From positions 2,726 through 66,725 of the forward strand of contig LSNR01000002.1 in NCBI GenBank assembly GCA_003056165.1: a stretch of 64,000 nucleotides of DNA, read 5' to 3'. The DNA is from Parcubacteria group bacterium M6-OD1-3 (GTDB lineage: Bacteria > Patescibacteriota > Minisyncoccia > Moranbacterales > UBA9337). Both the position numbers and the translations under genes were made by a program. The notes below the pieces were generated by a model. The model searched no databases, was not told the DNA's origin, and saw only the letters and a list, made by a program, of their open reading frames with translations. Below are positions 2,956 through 55,446 of the stretch, piece after piece (position 1 is the stretch's first letter; each line of letters starts with the position of its first letter).

Positions 2956-3639
2956 TTATGTTGTTTGTAATTTTCCATCTTTCAACCACACTGATCTATC
3001 TACATATTTCTTATCATCTGGCTCGTGCGTGACCATAATAATTGTCTGATTATATTTGTCTGCTAATTCACGCATCACCTCCAAAACCGCTTCTGCCGCC
3101 TCAGAATCCAAATTCGCTGTCGGCTCATCAGCGAAAAGAATGTCAGGTTTATTCACAATTGCACGCGCGATTGAAACTCTTTGTTGTTCGCCACCGGACA
3201 ATTCCGAAGGTAAATTATTCTCACGACCATTTAATCCAACTCTCTCAAGGATTTCTTTAATATCTTTATTATACTGTCTTTTTGATTTTCCTAATGCCAT
3301 CATAGGCAAAGCAATATTCTCATATAGAGTTAATTCTGGAATTAAGGCATAATCTTGAAAGACATACCCCAACACTTCTAACCGAAACTTTGCCCGATCT
3401 TGTTCCGATAATTTCGAAACATCAATACCATTTATTTCTATATATCCAGATGTTGGTCGATCCAGTAAAGCAATCTGATGCAAAAAGGTAGATTTTCCAG
3501 AACCACTTCGCCCCATCAATGCCACGAATTCACCCTTTTTTAATTCTATATCAATCCCTTTCAATGCATAAACTGGACTAGCTGTATTCGCTTTATATGT
3601 CTTAACCAAATCTTTAGTTTTTAAAATATATTCTTTCAT
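2956..3639 (-). CDS. ABC transporter ATP-binding protein (MacB/LolD/FtsE-like)
   Basis: Walker A 'GRSGSGKST', signature 'LSGGEQQRVSIARA', Walker B 'ILFADEPT'. Confidence 0.9.
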   Translation of the reverse strand: MKEYILKTKDLVKTYKANTASPVYALKGIDIELKKGEFVALMGRSGSGKSTFLHQIALLDRPTSGYIEINGIDVSKLSEQDRAKFRLEVLGYVFQDYALIPELTLYENIALPMMALGKSKRQYNKDIKEILERVGLNGRENNLPSELSGGEQQRVSIARAIVNKPDILFADEPTANLDSEAAEAVLEVMRELADKYNQTIIMVTHEPDDKKYVDRSVWLKDGKLQTT

Positions 3640-49334: not shown

Positions 49335-51059
49335 TTATTTTGCTTTCTCCAAAATCCTCACAACGCCATTATCCGCATCAACTTCAACCAAATCACCGTC
49401 TTCCAAAACTTGTGTGGCAATTTTTGTTCCGATGATACACGGTTTTTTTAATTCACGAGCCACAATGGCAGCGTGACTTGTGATTCCTCCTTCATCTGTA
49501 ATAATTGCTTTAGCTTTTCTCATTAAGGGCATAAATTCTGGTCTTGTCATAGATGTAACTAAAATATCCCCTTTTTTGAATTTATTAAATTCTGAAAGTC
49601 TTAACACTGTTTTTACTTTACCTTCAATATCTCCTTTATATGCAACTTGCCCCATAAGCGATTCTTCGTCTCTTTTACAAGATTTAATATATTTTTCTTC
49701 CATTTTTTTCTTTATATCTTCAAAATTCTTATATTCAAATTCTGTAGAACCATCATAATTATGCAGAAATAAAACCCCTTCTTGTCTACTAATAATCTCC
49801 TCTTTTATTTTCTCTAAATAGTTTTTTCCTTTCAAAAACTCCTCAAAGGCACAATAATAAATTAATTCATTATTTAATCCAATTTCTCTAAAAAATCTTT
49901 CCCCAACTTTAAAGTTGATTACAATTCCCTTTCCCATAACATCTTTTTTCTTATCTCTTAAAACAAGAATTGTTTGTATATAATCGACTAATTGTTTTTC
50001 TTCTTTGTTTAATGAATCTCTCCAATTCTTAAAAGATTCTTTTGTTTCTTTGTATTCCAATTCTTCTTTTTTAAGTTCTTTAGATGCCATCTTATGATTC
50101 CTTAAGTATTCTGAGTAATCTTTCTTTATATTTTCTTCCATGTCTTTTATTGATTTTATTTCTATATATCCAGAGTAAGCATATTGCATCTCTTCAGCCA
50201 TATCCTTTACGTTTCTTAAATTTAATATTAAGTTTAGGATTTTTTTATGCCTTCTTTTATCAAAAGAATCCTCTGTTGGTATAATTGCTTTATCCCAGAC
50301 ATTTTCAACAACTTCAGGCTTTAAATCTAAATTGTGTTTATTAATAAATTCAAAGACAAGTTCCTTATCAAATTGTGTTGAGAACCATGCCGTGCAATTA
50401 TATTCCCTTACTAAACTAATTAGTCTTTCTAATTTTTTAATAATTTCTTCTTCTTTATAAGATTCTATATTTTTGTAAGACAAATCAAAATAAATTCCAT
50501 TTATCTCCTCCTCTAAAGTCTCTAAATATGAGATAGTTTTAGATAGTATTTTGTTATCTCTCATATACTTTACAAAAAAGTTTTCTGAAATCATATTATA
50601 CCTAGTTTCAGACATCAAAACAAAAGCTTTACCTTTTTTCATTGCTATAAGAAATTTTATATTTAAATCTTTAACTTTTCTGCCGAAATTAGGGGTAAAT
50701 CCTCCTGCTCCTGCAGCTAAAATTGAAACAGGAACTAAAGGATAAAAAACATCTCTTTCAAATCCTTTCATAAATTTACCTAAAAGTGTCTTGTGTTTTT
50801 GGATTATGCCACTAAGAGTCGTTATCGGTCTACTTTGCGTGATATAAAATTTTCCATTTTCTTGAGCCCATTCTATATCCTGCGGAAGTCCGTAATGGTC
50901 TTCTATTTTTTTAACAAGTTTCGCCAATTCTAAAATCTCTTTATCTGATAAAACTTGCTCTTGACCTTTTTCACCCAACTTCAACCACTCATTACCACCA
51001 CCATCTTTACGATAAAGTCCCCTGTCCTGCTCACTAATATTTTTTTCTAAAATTTTCAT
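49335..51059 (-). CDS. C-terminal fragment of a PEP-synthase / rifampin-phosphotransferase-like protein (end of ATP-grasp, central domain, swivel His domain)
   Basis: 'PQDIEWAQENGKFYITQSRPITTL' (end of PPDK_N) and 'GDILVTSMTRPEFMPLMRKAKAIITDEGGITSHAAIVARELKKPCIIG'. Confidence 0.75.
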   Translation of the reverse strand: MKILEKNISEQDRGLYRKDGGGNEWLKLGEKGQEQVLSDKEILELAKLVKKIEDHYGLPQDIEWAQENGKFYITQSRPITTLSGIIQKHKTLLGKFMKGFERDVFYPLVPVSILAAGAGGFTPNFGRKVKDLNIKFLIAMKKGKAFVLMSETRYNMISENFFVKYMRDNKILSKTISYLETLEEEINGIYFDLSYKNIESYKEEEIIKKLERLISLVREYNCTAWFSTQFDKELVFEFINKHNLDLKPEVVENVWDKAIIPTEDSFDKRRHKKILNLILNLRNVKDMAEEMQYAYSGYIEIKSIKDMEENIKKDYSEYLRNHKMASKELKKEELEYKETKESFKNWRDSLNKEEKQLVDYIQTILVLRDKKKDVMGKGIVINFKVGERFFREIGLNNELIYYCAFEEFLKGKNYLEKIKEEIISRQEGVLFLHNYDGSTEFEYKNFEDIKKKMEEKYIKSCKRDEESLMGQVAYKGDIEGKVKTVLRLSEFNKFKKGDILVTSMTRPEFMPLMRKAKAIITDEGGITSHAAIVARELKKPCIIGTKIATQVLEDGDLVEVDADNGVVRILEKAK

Positions 51060-51061
51060 AA

Positions 51062-52054
51062 TTATTTCTTTAACAACAACAAAAGCAAGCCGACAATTCG
51101 GTCTTTGTCTTTTGGTTTTGATTCTACTACCAAAAGAGTGATAGCAGTCAATGCTTCTGGAGTAATTTTATGTCTAAACTTTATGCCAACTTTTTGCAAA
51201 AACCAAATAAAAGCAAACGCTCCTGTTCGTTTGTTACCGTCGGTGAATGGATGATTTTTAACTACAAAATATAATAAGTGAATTGCTTTTTCTTCTACGG
51301 TTAAATAAACATCTTGACCAAAAACTGCCTGCAAAACATTTCCTAAAATTCCCTCTAAAGTTTTTTGTTTTTTCTCTTGGGCAAATAATTCTGTTGCTTG
51401 TTTTTTCTTAATTAGTTCTTTTTTGAATTTTGCCACTGCTTCATATAATTCATCAGCTTGAATTTTCACTTTCTTTTTAGTGCTTCCTTTAATCGGAAAT
51501 TTATCTTCATCATAAGATTCTAAAGATAACCACGCCCCGGAAAAAGATTTTATCAATTCTAAAATATCAGCAGTTTTTACTGCATTATTTTCGGGTAATA
51601 ATTTTTTGACATCATCAACTGCTTTGATGAATTTATCGTAATTTTTCCCGATGATTTCCGGATTCATATTATAACCTTGATAAATATATTGCCTTAATAT
51701 TCTATTTGACCATTTTCTAAATTTTACGGCTTGAGCTGAATTAGTACGATAACCAACTGCTAAAATAATATCCAAATTATAGAATTCAACTTGTCGTTTT
51801 ATTTCCCTTTTTCCCTCTTTTTGAACTTGTGCAAAAATTGCACTAGTTGAATTTTTATCAACCTCCTTATCTTTAAAAATATTTTTAATATGCTTAGTTG
51901 TCACAGAACGCTCTATTCCAAAAACCTCCGCAATTTGTTTTTGCGTCGCCCAAATAGTTTCATTACCAAAATCACCCCGTAATTCAATTCCGCCGTTTTT
52001 TGCTTGATAAATTACCAAGTTTTTATTTAATTTTACAATCTTTTTCTGAACCAT
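51062..52054 (-). CDS. Fic/Doc-family protein with N-terminal RhuM-like domain; intact Doc-type motif HPFTDGNKRTGAFA
   Basis: ORF track; motifs read directly. Confidence 0.8.
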   Translation of the reverse strand: MVQKKIVKLNKNLVIYQAKNGGIELRGDFGNETIWATQKQIAEVFGIERSVTTKHIKNIFKDKEVDKNSTSAIFAQVQKEGKREIKRQVEFYNLDIILAVGYRTNSAQAVKFRKWSNRILRQYIYQGYNMNPEIIGKNYDKFIKAVDDVKKLLPENNAVKTADILELIKSFSGAWLSLESYDEDKFPIKGSTKKKVKIQADELYEAVAKFKKELIKKKQATELFAQEKKQKTLEGILGNVLQAVFGQDVYLTVEEKAIHLLYFVVKNHPFTDGNKRTGAFAFIWFLQKVGIKFRHKITPEALTAITLLVVESKPKDKDRIVGLLLLLLKK

Positions 52055-52080
52055 ATTATTAACTCACTTTAATTAACTTT

Positions 52081-52779
52081 TTATTTTTTACCAACAACAT
52101 AACTATCCGGTGTGATTTGTCCAGAGACAATAGATTCTCCCAAACCAAATCCTGCTTCAATTATTATTTGATTTCTATCTTCTGTTACTGGATGAACAGA
52201 AAAAGCAATGCCTGATTTTTCAGAATTTATCATTTTTTGGATTACTACTGCGACGGAAATTTTATCTTTATTTAATTTTTTTTCAAAACGATAAAAGATT
52301 GCTCTCGACGTAAATAGTGAAGCCCAGCATTTTTTAACATTTTTCAATAAGTCTTTTTCGGTTGTATTTAAAAAAGAATCTAATTGTCCTGCCCAAGCAT
52401 TTTCTTGTCCGTCTTCCGCTGTAGCTGAGCTACGCACTGCAACAAACTTGGCATTTAACTTTTTAAATTCTTTTTCAATTTCTTTCTTGATTGCTTCTGG
52501 AATTTTTGCTTTTAAAATCAAAGACCGGATATTTTTTGACGCTTTTTCAACACTTTGAAGCTTTTTGACATTTACTTTTTTCAACTCTTTTTGTATTTTT
52601 GAAGTTAGATTATTTTTTTCTAAAAATTCTTCAAAAGTTTTTGTTAAAATCACAAAACCGTCTGGAACTGGAATTCCCGCTTGTGTCATCTCACCAAGTG
52701 AAGCCCCTTTACCTCCAGCAATATGAGTGTCTTTTTTTGATAGTTGTTCAAATGATTTGGTAAACATATCTTCATTCAT
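52081..52779 (-). CDS. N-terminal fragment of the same PEP-synthase-like ATP-grasp (PPDK_N) protein
   Basis: 'GGKGASLGEMTQAGIPVPDGFVIL'; ends …DSYVVGKK, where E. coli PpsA continues …DEFYVHKPT…. Confidence 0.75.
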   Translation of the reverse strand: MNEDMFTKSFEQLSKKDTHIAGGKGASLGEMTQAGIPVPDGFVILTKTFEEFLEKNNLTSKIQKELKKVNVKKLQSVEKASKNIRSLILKAKIPEAIKKEIEKEFKKLNAKFVAVRSSATAEDGQENAWAGQLDSFLNTTEKDLLKNVKKCWASLFTSRAIFYRFEKKLNKDKISVAVVIQKMINSEKSGIAFSVHPVTEDRNQIIIEAGFGLGESIVSGQITPDSYVVGKK

Positions 52780-52820
52780 TAAAGTTTTTTCAATTCCGTC
52801 TCCAAAACCTTTTTTCCATC
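52773..52820. repeat. 48-bp perfect direct repeat, right copy
   Basis: See 42593-42640; here it spans the NUDIX stop / PEP-synthase-fragment start. Confidence 0.9.
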
Positions 52821-53264
52821 CTTATTAAACAAAAAATTACCTTCAAAGTTTTTACCAGATAATAAAAGTGGCAACCAATACTGATCATCAACCCACATTT
52901 TTTTATAAGGAATTTCACTATGTTCAAACCATCTAGGCAACATTTCTTCCGTTTCTTCCGGCTCACCAATTATATTATCGCTGACAATAGAGAAAAAATT
53001 TACTTCCAAAATTTCTTTTAATTTATTTTCAAAACGAAAATCTATTATACCTCTTTTTATAAGACTCTCTTTGCTTTTTATTTTGAGACAACTTTCTTCA
53101 AATAATTCTCGCTCTGCTGCCTCAAAAATATTTTCATTTTTTTCTACTTTACCGCCAAAACCATTCCATTTCCCCATCCCAAACCCTCTCTTTTTCATTC
53201 CCAAAAGAATTTTTTCATTATCATAAACTAAAATCAGTGTCAGTTTTTGTTTTTTCATTATCAT
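52779..53264 (-). CDS. NUDIX hydrolase
   Basis: Nudix box 'GGKVEKNENIFEAAERELFEESCL'. Confidence 0.8.
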   Translation of the reverse strand: MIMKKQKLTLILVYDNEKILLGMKKRGFGMGKWNGFGGKVEKNENIFEAAERELFEESCLKIKSKESLIKRGIIDFRFENKLKEILEVNFFSIVSDNIIGEPEETEEMLPRWFEHSEIPYKKMWVDDQYWLPLLLSGKNFEGNFLFNKDGKKVLETELKKL

Positions 53265-53282
53265 AATAATATGGAGGCCTAA

Positions 53283-53305
53283 TATGGAGGCCTTGCCTCC
53301 ATATT
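53283..53305. repeat. REP-like GC-rich hairpin atatggaggc-ctt-gcctccatat (half-copy at 53269-53280; further copies at 53780-53798 and 53991-54013)
   Basis: Read directly. Confidence 0.7.
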
Positions 53306-53308
53306 CAT

Positions 53309-54010
53309 CTATTCAAAACTATTTTTTAATATTTCTTTATTTTTTAAAATACCCCGTAGCTGTCTATTGGCAAACTGCTCATACTCTTTCTTATCCCTAG
53401 TGAAAGAATCTAAAATATATCCAGTTGTACAAAGATTAGTTTTCATATTTTTTATATATTCAGGAAGGCTGGTTCTATATTTATTATTTCTGCCACTTTC
53501 ATCTCTTTTAATTTTGTGGACTTTAAAATTTAAATTGACATATACTGATAATCTATTCAAATATTCTTGTGTGCCAATATGCTTAGCTTTAAATTTCCCT
53601 TGAAACAAAGATCCATTTCTTTTGTTTTTCTTATTAAAATACATAGTATAACCTGTTCCAATCTTTTGCATAAATTTAGAAATACCACCTTCAATATTTT
53701 GTCTCAAGATAAAATGAAAATGATTTGGCAACAAACAAAATGCCACTACTTCTACTAACATGGAGGCCTTGCCTCCATTCTTAATCTTTTTAGAATACTT
53801 GTATTGTGGGACACCACCTAGAGAGTTTTCTTGATTAAATAAATCAATAATTTGTAAAAATTTAAAAAAATCTTGGCTATCTTCAAAAATAACTCTTCTA
53901 TCTATACCTCTATTGTAAATATGATAAAATTCGTCTGTGCTAAATCTTATTTTTCTTATACTCATACTCAATTTTATATCATTTTCCCCATATGGAGGCA
54001 AGGCCTCCAT
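53309..54010 (-). CDS. REP-associated tyrosine transposase (RAYT, IS200/IS605-like HuH Y1)
   Basis: 'FYHIYNRGIDRRVIFED', HuH 'LLPNHFHFIL', 'YTMYFNKKNKRNGSLFQGKFK'. Confidence 0.75.
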   Translation of the reverse strand: MEALPPYGENDIKLSMSIRKIRFSTDEFYHIYNRGIDRRVIFEDSQDFFKFLQIIDLFNQENSLGGVPQYKYSKKIKNGGKASMLVEVVAFCLLPNHFHFILRQNIEGGISKFMQKIGTGYTMYFNKKNKRNGSLFQGKFKAKHIGTQEYLNRLSVYVNLNFKVHKIKRDESGRNNKYRTSLPEYIKNMKTNLCTTGYILDSFTRDKKEYEQFANRQLRGILKNKEILKNSFE

Positions 54011-54027
54011 ATAGTTCTTGCAACTAT

Positions 54028-55446
54028 TTATTTTATTCTTTCAAACAAAATTTCTTTTTTACCTGTTTCTAGTTGTTGTTTTATTTTAATTGAAGTTTCT
54101 GGCATAAATGATTCTAGAAGCTGAGCTATAAAATACAAATCTTCAACTAATTTTTCCATTACTTTCTCAAATTCTTTCTTACTACTTTTTGCTAGTTCCC
54201 ACGGCTTTGTTTCTTCAATGTATTTATTACTCTTCTGAACAAGATGACTCCAAATTCTTTCTAGCGCCTTATCAAACCATAAGCTTTCGATAAACATTTT
54301 ATTCCACTGTATTGGATCATATATTTTTCTTTCAATATTACTAAAATCAATATTTTCACTTAATTTCACAACTCGCGAAACCAAATTTCCCAAACCATTT
54401 GCTAGATCAGCATTATATTTTTCAACCATTCTTTCTATTGTAATATCAATATCTTCTCCGAAAGTTCCAGCTGAAAGTAAAAGATAGCGTGTACCATCTG
54501 TACCAAATTTCTCCAACATCTCATCAATACTAATCACATTGCCGATTGTTTTACTCATCTTTTTTCCGTCCGATAAAATATGTCCGTGCACAAAAAGCTG
54601 TTTTGGCAACTCAATTCCTAAGTGCATTAACATTATTGGCCAAATTGTAGCGTGAACCCGTAAAATATCTTTACCCAACATTTGAATATTCGCTGGCCAA
54701 AAATCTGGAATTTTATTTACATCACCATTCCACCCTAGTCCTGTTAAATAATTTAACAAAGCATCAAACCAAACGTAAGCCGTGTGCGTTTCGTCAAATG
54801 GCAACGGAATTCCCCAATTAACATTTTTTCGTGAAATAGATAAATCTTCCAACTCATTATTTTTTAGAAATGACAAGATTTCCTTTTTATATTTTTCTGG
54901 TCTAATTTTAAAGTCATCACTTTCAATTTTTTGAATCAATTCAGTTTGTCTTTCATCCATTTTCATCATATAGCTTTCTTCCTTCATCACTTCCGGTTCT
55001 ACATTATGATCCGGACATTTTCCATCCACTAAATCACTTTCGTTTTTAAATTGCTCACAACCAACGCAATATAATCCTTCATATTCTCCCTTATAAATCA
55101 CTCCTTTATCATATAAAGTTTGCAAAGAAACCTGAATTGCTTTTTTGTGTTCAGGATTTGTCGTTCGAATAAAATTATCATATTCAATATCTAATTCTTG
55201 CCAAAGTTTTTTAAAGTCATCTGAAACTTCATTTACCAATTCCTGGGGTTTTTTGCTTTCCTCTTTTGCTTTTTGTGCAATTTTTGCTCCATGTTCATCC
55301 ATTCCCGTTAAAAAGAAGGTTTTTGTTTTTTGTAATTTATAGAATCGTGCTAATGCATCAGTCGCGACAGTTGTATATGCATGCCCAATATGCGGTTGTG
55401 CGTTAGCATAATAAATTGGAGTTGTTATATAAAATTTATTTTTCAT
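54028..55446 (-). CDS. metG: methionyl-tRNA synthetase (short form)
   Basis: 'HIGH' in 'AQPHIGHAYT', 'KMSKT', Zn knuckle 'CVGCEQF…CPDH'. Confidence 0.9.
   Translation of the reverse strand: MKNKFYITTPIYYANAQPHIGHAYTTVATDALARFYKLQKTKTFFLTGMDEHGAKIAQKAKEESKKPQELVNEVSDDFKKLWQELDIEYDNFIRTTNPEHKKAIQVSLQTLYDKGVIYKGEYEGLYCVGCEQFKNESDLVDGKCPDHNVEPEVMKEESYMMKMDERQTELIQKIESDDFKIRPEKYKKEILSFLKNNELEDLSISRKNVNWGIPLPFDETHTAYVWFDALLNYLTGLGWNGDVNKIPDFWPANIQMLGKDILRVHATIWPIMLMHLGIELPKQLFVHGHILSDGKKMSKTIGNVISIDEMLEKFGTDGTRYLLLSAGTFGEDIDITIERMVEKYNADLANGLGNLVSRVVKLSENIDFSNIERKIYDPIQWNKMFIESLWFDKALERIWSHLVQKSNKYIEETKPWELAKSSKKEFEKVMEKLVEDLYFIAQLLESFMPETSIKIKQQLETGKKEILFERIK

Follow-up and report, generated by a model that had tools for sequence, protein, structure and literature searches.

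A probable compact REPtron of a Parcubacteria bacterium, with copies of one hairpin around and within the reading frame of a Y1 transposase gene

The TnpA_REP protein of E. coli, also referred to as a repetitive extragenic palindromic (REP)-associated tyrosine transposase (RAYT), cleaves and rejoins single-stranded DNA at the foot of the REP hairpin (PMC8266576). REP copies located in frame within tnpA_REP genes have been described for subclass 2.4 in a study that classified the TnpA_Y1 proteins of complete genomes and encountered them chiefly in large genomes (Quentin, Siguier, Chandler and Fichant, 2018, BMC Genomics 19:475; PMC6006769). Di Nocera et al. (PMC3733652) catalogued REPs located within other genes and noted that those at predicted N-termini are often extragenic, with translation starting further downstream. 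Here, we describe a Y1 transposase gene and its hairpins in a 64,000-nucleotide stretch of DNA from Parcubacteria group bacterium M6-OD1-3, a member of the candidate phyla radiation (CPR) (GenBank assembly GCA_003056165.1, contig LSNR01000002.1, positions 2,726 to 66,725 of the forward strand; the whole stretch is hereafter called the window). The locus is probably a compact REPtron of a CPR bacterium, in which a Y1 gene of the TnpA_REP (RAYT) type is bounded by its cognate hairpins. This reading builds on the anatomy of the locus, the fold of the protein, the pattern across the gene family, the locus-specific matching of the hairpins and the insertion of the unit relative to sister genomes, all of which were shown here. 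The features of the locus are as follows.

53259-54027: the whole inserted unit of 769 bp, with hairpin U, the Y1 gene, hairpin D and the half hairpin, located between metG and a NUDIX gene.
53309-53965, minus strand: Y1 HuH/Tyr nuclease-transposase gene (TnpA_REP/RAYT-like), 218 amino acids from M16; the longest open reading frame (ORF) reaches 54010.
53714-53722, minus strand: HuH motif H97-F98-H99 (within NHFHF); N96, H97 and H99 are invariant in the homologue alignment.
53540-53542, minus strand: candidate catalytic tyrosine Y157 (motif YVNLN); Y157, N159 and N161 are invariant in the alignment.
53990-54012: upstream hairpin U, with a perfect stem of 10 bp and a 3-nt loop that reads CTT on the gene strand.
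53758-53780: internal hairpin I1, identical at 20 of 23 positions, with a perfect 19-nt palindrome at 53760-53778.
53282-53304: downstream hairpin D, with the loop AAG on the gene strand, beginning 4 nt past the stop codon.
53269-53280: half hairpin ATATGGAGGCCT, a 12-nt duplicate of one arm and two loop bases of D, which it adjoins.

The repeat is a 23-bp palindrome, ATATGGAGGC-CTT-GCCTCCATAT, with three copies in the window, all of which are located at the Y1 gene. The 23-mer ATATGGAGGCCTTGCCTCCATAT is exact at 53282-53304 on the plus strand and its reverse complement is found at 53990-54012, so that the two copies have the same stem and differ in the orientation of the 3-nt loop. The outer copies are thus exact reverse complements, and the gene is flanked by inverted copies of a single palindrome, an arrangement expected of a REPtron. 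The stem of D extends to 11 bp if positions 53281 and 53305 are counted. With up to three mismatches allowed, the 23-mer had no further match in the window and none in any of 100 shuffled sequences. The core GGAGGC-NNN-GCCTCC was found three times in the 64 kb, at the same three sites, as compared to a mean of 0.01 in dinucleotide shuffles, none of which reached three. The G+C content of the window is 32%. Folded as single-stranded DNA, each copy forms a stem of 8-11 bp, with a dG of -8 to -11 kcal/mol and z-scores from -2.8 to -4.4. An initial annotation of the sequence had recognized the GC-rich hairpin flanks, the in-frame internal copy and the half copy, all of which were recovered here. 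The copies lie within the span that it gave for the element (53269-54013), but its coordinates for the outer copies (53283-53305 and 53991-54013) are off by one and those for the inner copy (53780-53798) by about 20 nt.

The encoded protein has the HuH motif, the single catalytic tyrosine and the fold that characterize the Y1 HuH transposase superfamily. It matches the Pfam family Y1_Tnp (PF01797) with an E-value of 7.6e-9 and 36.2 bits, which is above the cut-off of 23. In the AlphaFold model (predicted local distance difference test, pLDDT, 88; predicted template modelling score, pTM, 0.86; input alignment of 117 sequences), Y157 is placed in the helix that follows the core sheet. The best match to a structure in the PDB, as identified with Foldseek, was E. 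coli TnpA_REP on a REP hairpin (4ER8_A, E 2.4e-6), followed by the TnpA proteins of IS608 and ISDra2, and the fold matches to 4ER8, 2VJV and 2XMA all had a probability of 1.0. Searches of PDB sequences with the family profiles identified no protein at E<=1, and only a spurious hit to RNase A at E<=10. The protein is predicted to be an intact HuH/Tyr Y1 nuclease, in agreement with the initial identification of a RAYT-type transposase. No other gene of this kind was found in the window, and the nearest other homologue is only 61% identical.

The longest ORF begins inside the upstream hairpin, which had therefore been read as the start codon region of the protein (MEALPPYG). This is probably an artefact of choosing the longest frame. 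Among the 25 aligned homologues, 22 begin at the position of M16 (MSIRK) or two residues later, and the called genes of the closest relatives begin at the M16 position, where 28-44 nt separate the upstream hairpin from the ATG. For this reason, translation most likely starts at 53965, with U being extragenic and ending 24 nt before the start. For annotation, this means that the upstream hairpin leads to start codons being called too far upstream.

The internal hairpin is translated in frame as N78-G-G-K-A-S-M84, in which GGA GGC AAG GCC TCC (53776-53762, minus strand) encodes G79, G80, K81, A82 and S83, 14 residues ahead of H97-F98-H99. In the model, the 27 residues from helix A to the next strand form a coil, nine of them with a confidence below 50, and the residues encoded by the hairpin fall at its end, immediately ahead of the two strands leading to the HuH motif. 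Typical Y1 cores have no such loop of about 27 residues. The Pfam match spans residues 76-159 only, aligned to positions 31-119 of the profile, which is in keeping with roughly 17-20 additional residues relative to the generic Y1 core.

We surveyed 86 homologous genes in 80 metagenome loci (designated by L-numbers) and the window, searching for hairpins in each gene and in the adjacent 200-250 nt on both sides. A locus-specific GC-rich hairpin was identified for 75 of the 86 genes, and these represent 47 different types of arms and loops. The copies occupy up to four canonical sites: U, a few tens of nucleotides before the start; I1, corresponding to window residues ~70-85 before the HuH strand; I2, after the Tyr helix, between window residues 170 and 171; and D, 14-30 nt past the stop. 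There is no copy at I2 in the window gene. The most common combinations are U+I1+D (25 genes), which is the type seen in the window, U+I2+D (14 genes) and U+I1+I2+D (11 genes), and the position equivalent to U is occupied by a cognate hairpin in most homologous loci. Additional or double copies beside D were also present in L052, L057, L076 and L088. Single internal copies are read in one and the same frame (GGN GGN xxx NCC NCC) in 38 of 41 cases at I1 and in all 32 cases at I2, whereas the flanking copies are spread over all three phases. The loop at I1, I2 and D has the same orientation as the loop at U in about half of the cases and is flipped in the other half, and the orientation differs even between close relatives (L017 versus L021; L020 versus L022). 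The stems are ~95% Watson-Crick paired across 10 pairs, some of which had played no part in detecting the hairpins. At I1, inverted doublets were found in L061, L088 and L090, the one in L061 being an in-frame palindrome of 32 nt.

The initial annotation took the segment before the HuH motif for an insertion of about 20 residues and proposed an alignment of the protein with its relatives. The loop is indeed absent from typical Y1 cores, but it is not private to this protein. It is present in all 25 aligned homologues, with the consensus SLGSLxxYKYPxNxKxRGKTSxLV, and its length does not depend on the hairpin. We therefore rejected the idea of a private insertion in the window gene. The median length of the I1 loop is 26 residues in genes without a detectable hairpin, as compared to 27 residues in genes with one, and the I2 linker is likewise unchanged. 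The loops are therefore old, and the hairpins in them are either renewed or decay in place. At the position of GGKAS, the homologues have RGKTS, RGSTS, GGLAS, RSKAS or GNRVT, all of them sequences that a palindrome can encode (AGA GGT AAG ACC TCT, for instance). A fixed register of the I1 hairpin to the invariant Leu85 was also considered and rejected, as the hairpin abuts K-L-V in some genes and is located at least three codons upstream in others. The internal copy is apparently not a recent accident of the window gene.

The internal copies resemble the flanking copies of their own locus. The core of the internal copy has a mean identity of 96% to its own flank copy, as compared to 50% to the flanks of other loci. 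In L100 and L101, which contain the closest relatives (~60% identical), the core GGAGGC-AAG-GCCTCC is the same as in the window, but the foot is ACGG/CCGT rather than ATGG/CCAT, and the internal copy follows its own flanks at each locus. This change of the foot alters the encoded residues, which are D/V in L100 and L101 and N/M in the window. Since the internal copy matches the foot of its own flanks, the internal and flanking copies evolve in concert; judged from these comparisons, it is by concerted evolution that internal copies stay like the flanks in their own genome. Hairpin arms were common to both members of a pair in 36% of the protein pairs with 70-80% identity, as compared to 1% of those with 40-50% identity.

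The family is large: it forms more than 3,159 clusters at 90% identity, while the number at 50% identity is 1,394 with E<=1e-30 and 13,690 with E<=1e-10. Where organism names are given, nearly all belong to CPR lineages, which contradicts the previous assumption that RAYT/REP systems are uncommon in these genomes.

The unit is located between the stop codon of metG (54028-54030) and the probable start codon of the NUDIX gene (ATG, 53258-53256). The best named matches of the methionyl-tRNA synthetase (MetRS) in the window are to Candidatus Moranbacteria and the Parcubacteria group. The gene order PolA-GTPase-PK-MetRS-NUDIX is the same in the window and in L095 (MetRS 86% identical), L096 and L097 (both 80%), in which the metG stop codon directly abuts or overlaps the start of the NUDIX gene. 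These comparisons show the entire 769-bp unit to be an insertion. Its junction can be placed to within about 2 nt, and no target-site duplication could be recognized. As a whole, the unit has thus been mobilized or acquired on at least one occasion, and in this it behaves like IS200. An identical protein is encoded on nine contigs, all of which were recovered, and the six examined have the metG-NUDIX context and identical DNA. Elsewhere, the family genes are not located beside metG or NUDIX genes, and no conserved synteny was found. In L099 (positions 1681-2141; MetRS 77% identical), metG and the NUDIX gene are separated by an AT-rich spacer of 460 bp, in which neither a called gene nor a hairpin copy is present, and the junction seems to be prone to acquiring DNA.

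By analogy with the characterized enzymes, the Y1 protein would bind the folded hairpin on single-stranded DNA and then cut and rejoin at its foot. TnpA of IS608 also cuts and rejoins at the foot of a hairpin. Such reactions could move hairpin copies and, at least once, may have moved the whole 769-bp unit. The outer copies would then be the cognate sites, while the inner copy would sit in a permissive, disordered surface loop before the HuH strands. In many genomes, hairpin copies are found in two permissive loops of the family, one before the HuH motif and one after the Tyr helix. Catalysis on these particular hairpins and the process that keeps the copies alike are inferred. Candidates for a homogenizing process are replacement of copies by the enzyme, short-tract conversion, and insertion of a new copy beside the old one followed by deletion, for which the existence of inverted doublets at I1 can be cited. 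The stems may be kept perfect by templated repair within the palindrome, and template switching in palindromes can produce loop flips as well as perfect stems. We consider it doubtful that the internal copies are kept identical specifically by the cut-and-rejoin activity of the enzyme, or as self-targets that tune its expression. If this were true, the reading frame of the enzyme would itself contain its DNA target, the two would co-evolve, and the more than 60 natural pairs of genes and hairpins would provide a covariation data set for hairpin recognition by RAYT-type proteins and for REP renewal.

Several observations weigh against the interpretation of the locus as a REPtron. No copy of the palindrome was found in the other 63 kb of the window. 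The canonical 5' GT[AG]G foot of REPs is not present; the hairpin foot reads ATATGG in the window, the closest relatives have AGCACGG, and most family members have (C)ACTTGG. The protein scored 31.7 bits against the NCBIfam equivalog REP_Tyr_transpos for E. coli-type RayT (NF047646) and thereby missed the cut-off of 80 bits. Finally, insertion into an empty site is expected of an insertion sequence and not of a domesticated, immobile RAYT.

Because the palindrome is not dispersed in the window, its status as a REP in this genome rests on related loci. A scan for the 19-mer in a genome collection, in which the source genome was not included, gave eight single matches in unrelated genomes (Vibrio, Nitrospira and others), which is about what is expected by chance. 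Among the related loci with at least 5 kb of outside sequence, 12 of 38 have cognate hairpins elsewhere than at the gene, in total 23 copies in 437 kb. The initial annotation had held that a palindrome unique to the locus, together with a protein that aligns without an insertion, would refute its reading; the copies in the window are confined to the gene, but those in some related loci are not. The dispersed copies are mostly intergenic and located just past gene ends, and some form inverted doublets, as in L069, where 8-9 copies were found in 12 kb. The density of hairpins at the gene is more than 100 times that found elsewhere. As for the expectation that a REPtron has a single gene with its own repeat, there is one gene in the 64 kb of the window, and the two paralogues on one contig in L091 have different hairpins. 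In L061, three family genes are located on one 17-kb contig (2116-2904, 9959-10672 and 11423-12136). Two of these share the same hairpin type and an internal segment of 597 bp at 94% identity, and the third has a different hairpin. The family seems to behave as a low-copy REP/RAYT system.

A few cognate hairpins were observed within other coding sequences. In L084 (2525-2539), a copy is located in frame in the gene for a YchF-type GTPase, at a point between its G and C-terminal domains. In L082 (6885-6920), an inverted doublet is found near the C-terminus of a protein of 1853 amino acids with a Peptidase_S74 domain, and in L028 (1470-1484) a copy lies inside an ORF of 193 amino acids without a match in Pfam.

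The alternative that fares best is that the internal hairpins are functional cis elements under selection, which would bind or nick the gene or its mRNA in a self-limiting manner or block antisense transcription. Although the loci diverge fast from one another, agreement of the internal copies with their flanks is seen in more than 50 of them, the positions and reading frame of these copies are fixed, and the internal copy of L016 retains a perfect stem of 14 bp despite a compensatory pair that sets it apart from the flanks. On the plus strand at 53760-53790, antisense to the gene, the internal hairpin of the window is followed by the T-rich run TCTTAATCTTTTT and scores as terminator-like; two such sites were found in the region, as compared to 0.3 expected, and the hairpin could possibly stop antisense transcription. 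However, a hairpin could not be detected in 40 of 85 intact-looking genes at I1 and in 52 of 84 at I2, and several of the genes have flanking copies only, which argues that the internal copies are dispensable rather than essential. The loop orientation of about 50:50 is also at odds with a selected element, as is the lack of an Rfam match in 52700-54400 at E<=1. Neither was there an excess of G.T pairs on the sense strand of the internal stems, where G.T to A.C was 7:9, as compared to 23:9 in the flanks, although these counts of wobble pairs are too small to decide on a signal at the RNA level. We regard selected cis elements as an unlikely explanation.

Somewhat less likely still is an autonomous IS200-like insertion sequence (IS), for which the outer hairpins would be the ends, the unit would transpose as a whole and the internal hairpin would be incidental. 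The 769-bp unit does resemble IS200, a ~0.7-kb unit with one Y1 gene and hairpins near both ends that inserts without target duplication. It is also missing from the same site in the sister genomes, and the family lacks conserved synteny. The two similar paralogues in L061 might be taken as traces of movement, but the segment that they have in common excludes the ends, and recent transposition is not supported there. In IS200/IS605 elements, the left-end and right-end hairpins lie on the same strand. Here, the outer hairpins are inverted, perfect palindromes that occur in either orientation, solo hairpins are dispersed away from the gene in related genomes, and multiple identical copies were not seen. 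The gene is present once in the window and in one context with identical DNA in the six contigs, no other homologue exceeds the 61% identity given above, and the fold is nearer to TnpA_REP than to TnpA of IS608. The tyrosine motif of IS200 is Y-x-x-x-Q (PMC6006769 Table 1), as compared to the Y-x-x-x-N of class 2 in the YVNLN of this protein. The locus is for these reasons not assigned to the IS200/IS605 family. That the hairpins are ordinary terminators or mRNA-stabilizing stem-loops of neighbouring genes, unrelated to the enzyme, is most improbable: the outer copies do follow directly on the stop codons of metG and the Y1 gene, and the dispersed copies of relatives are mostly located just downstream of genes, but no intrinsic terminator was found on the gene strand, where the outer hairpins have no T-run, the same sequence occurs inside a coding sequence, hairpin and Y1 protein co-vary from locus to locus, and the sister genomes have neither the hairpins nor the gene.

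Other features were observed in the vicinity and elsewhere in the window. At 49335-52779 on the minus strand, a gene for a phosphoenolpyruvate (PEP)-utilising enzyme is split in two by a RhuM/Fic ORF (51062-52054). The split falls at position ~224/228 of the PPDK_N profile, with gaps of 26 and 2 nt; the ORF at 52081-52779 covers PPDK_N positions 3-224, and the ORF at 49335-51059 covers positions 228-319 and the PEP-utilizers domain. The order PPDK_N, RhuM/Fic, PPDK_N is also seen in L009 and L010, and the RhuM/Fic ORF resembles an inserted cassette that interrupts a metabolic gene. Downstream of the Fic gene, L009 (12952-15120), an NCBI contig with an identical Y1 gene, diverges from the window (49335-51059): in place of the ORF for a PEP-utiliser of 574 aa, it carries a 97-aa PPDK_N fragment, a radical SAM gene and an IS1595-type DDE transposase. 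This difference appears to indicate a strain-level rearrangement near the locus. At 2901-2925, between the ORFs at 1642-2784 and 2956-3639, we also identified a perfect GC-rich hairpin with an 11-bp stem, AACAGCGAGGT-TGA-ACCTCGCTGTT, which is single in the window and unrelated in sequence to the repeat at 53.3-54.0 kb.

We compared the locus to the systems described previously. E. coli TnpA_REP with its REPs, arranged as bacterial interspersed mosaic elements (BIMEs), is the best structural match (PDB 4ER8; PMC3333891, PMC3479197, PMC8266576). In both cases, inverted cognate hairpins flank the gene, the gene is single-copy (here within the 64-kb window), and protein and hairpin co-evolve. The two proteins have a sequence identity of only ~14%, and E. 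coli REPs are imperfect and bulged, have a GTAG foot and occur in hundreds of copies, whereas the hairpins described here are perfect, have no GTAG and are found in low copy numbers. In intragenic REPs and Rickettsia palindromic elements (PMC3733652), palindromes are likewise translated in frame and presumably tolerated in loops. Here, in contrast, the repeat lies within the gene for its own presumed enzyme, at sites that are constant throughout a large family.

REPs inside RAYT genes are already known, for one subclass in complete genomes. That subclass, 2.4 (Bertels group 4), is similar to the locus in having a Y1 gene between cognate REPs, and internal REPs that keep the frame and sit in a peripheral variable region (PMC6006769). 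However, its insertions mostly fall between the HuH and Tyr motifs, whereas those observed here are found before HuH, on the way from helix A to the following strand, and after the Tyr helix. The motifs differ as well, being NH[IFV]H, WQ and YIxNNP in subclass 2.4 and NH[YF]H, FQG and YVNLN here, and neither the motifs nor the insertion sites place the protein in that subclass. The REPs of subclass 2.4 are long or of the "double foot" type with GT[AG]G, as compared to the short perfect palindromes without GT[AG]G in this study, and its hosts are Cyanobacteria and Bacteroidetes rather than CPR bacteria. CPR lineages are not mentioned in the main text and two text supplements of PMC6006769, and our search of the literature identified no relevant paper that links RAYTs or REP doublets forming hairpins (REPINs) to Patescibacteria.

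The best fit to the signatures in Table 1 of PMC6006769 is subclass 2.1/TIRYT (PMC6006769; PMC3733652), with NH[YF]H, FQ, a Y[IV]HLNP-like motif, an SS motif in the tail and a length of ~238 aa, as compared to NH[YF]H, FQG, YVNLN, SSWxEY and 212-233 aa in this family. Subclass 2.1 has been reported to lack REPs, some members having long terminal inverted repeats, whereas this family has cognate hairpins. For studies of RAYT-REP co-evolution and of the spread of REPs, the family offers many natural pairs of enzymes and hairpins, and the small size of the system (a protein of 218 aa, a hairpin of 23 nt and a unit of 769 bp) should facilitate experiments. What is new in comparison to the described systems is that the arrangement pervades a large, unclassified clade of Y1 proteins in the CPR, at two other fixed sites, and that the hairpin varies from genome to genome, with internal and flanking copies changing in step. 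The genomes of CPR bacteria are very small, whereas the published survey encountered such genes mainly in large ones. By its sequence, the locus resembles a CPR (Moranbacteria-like) REPtron of a 2.1-like clade, a class placement that is based on the Table 1 motifs only.

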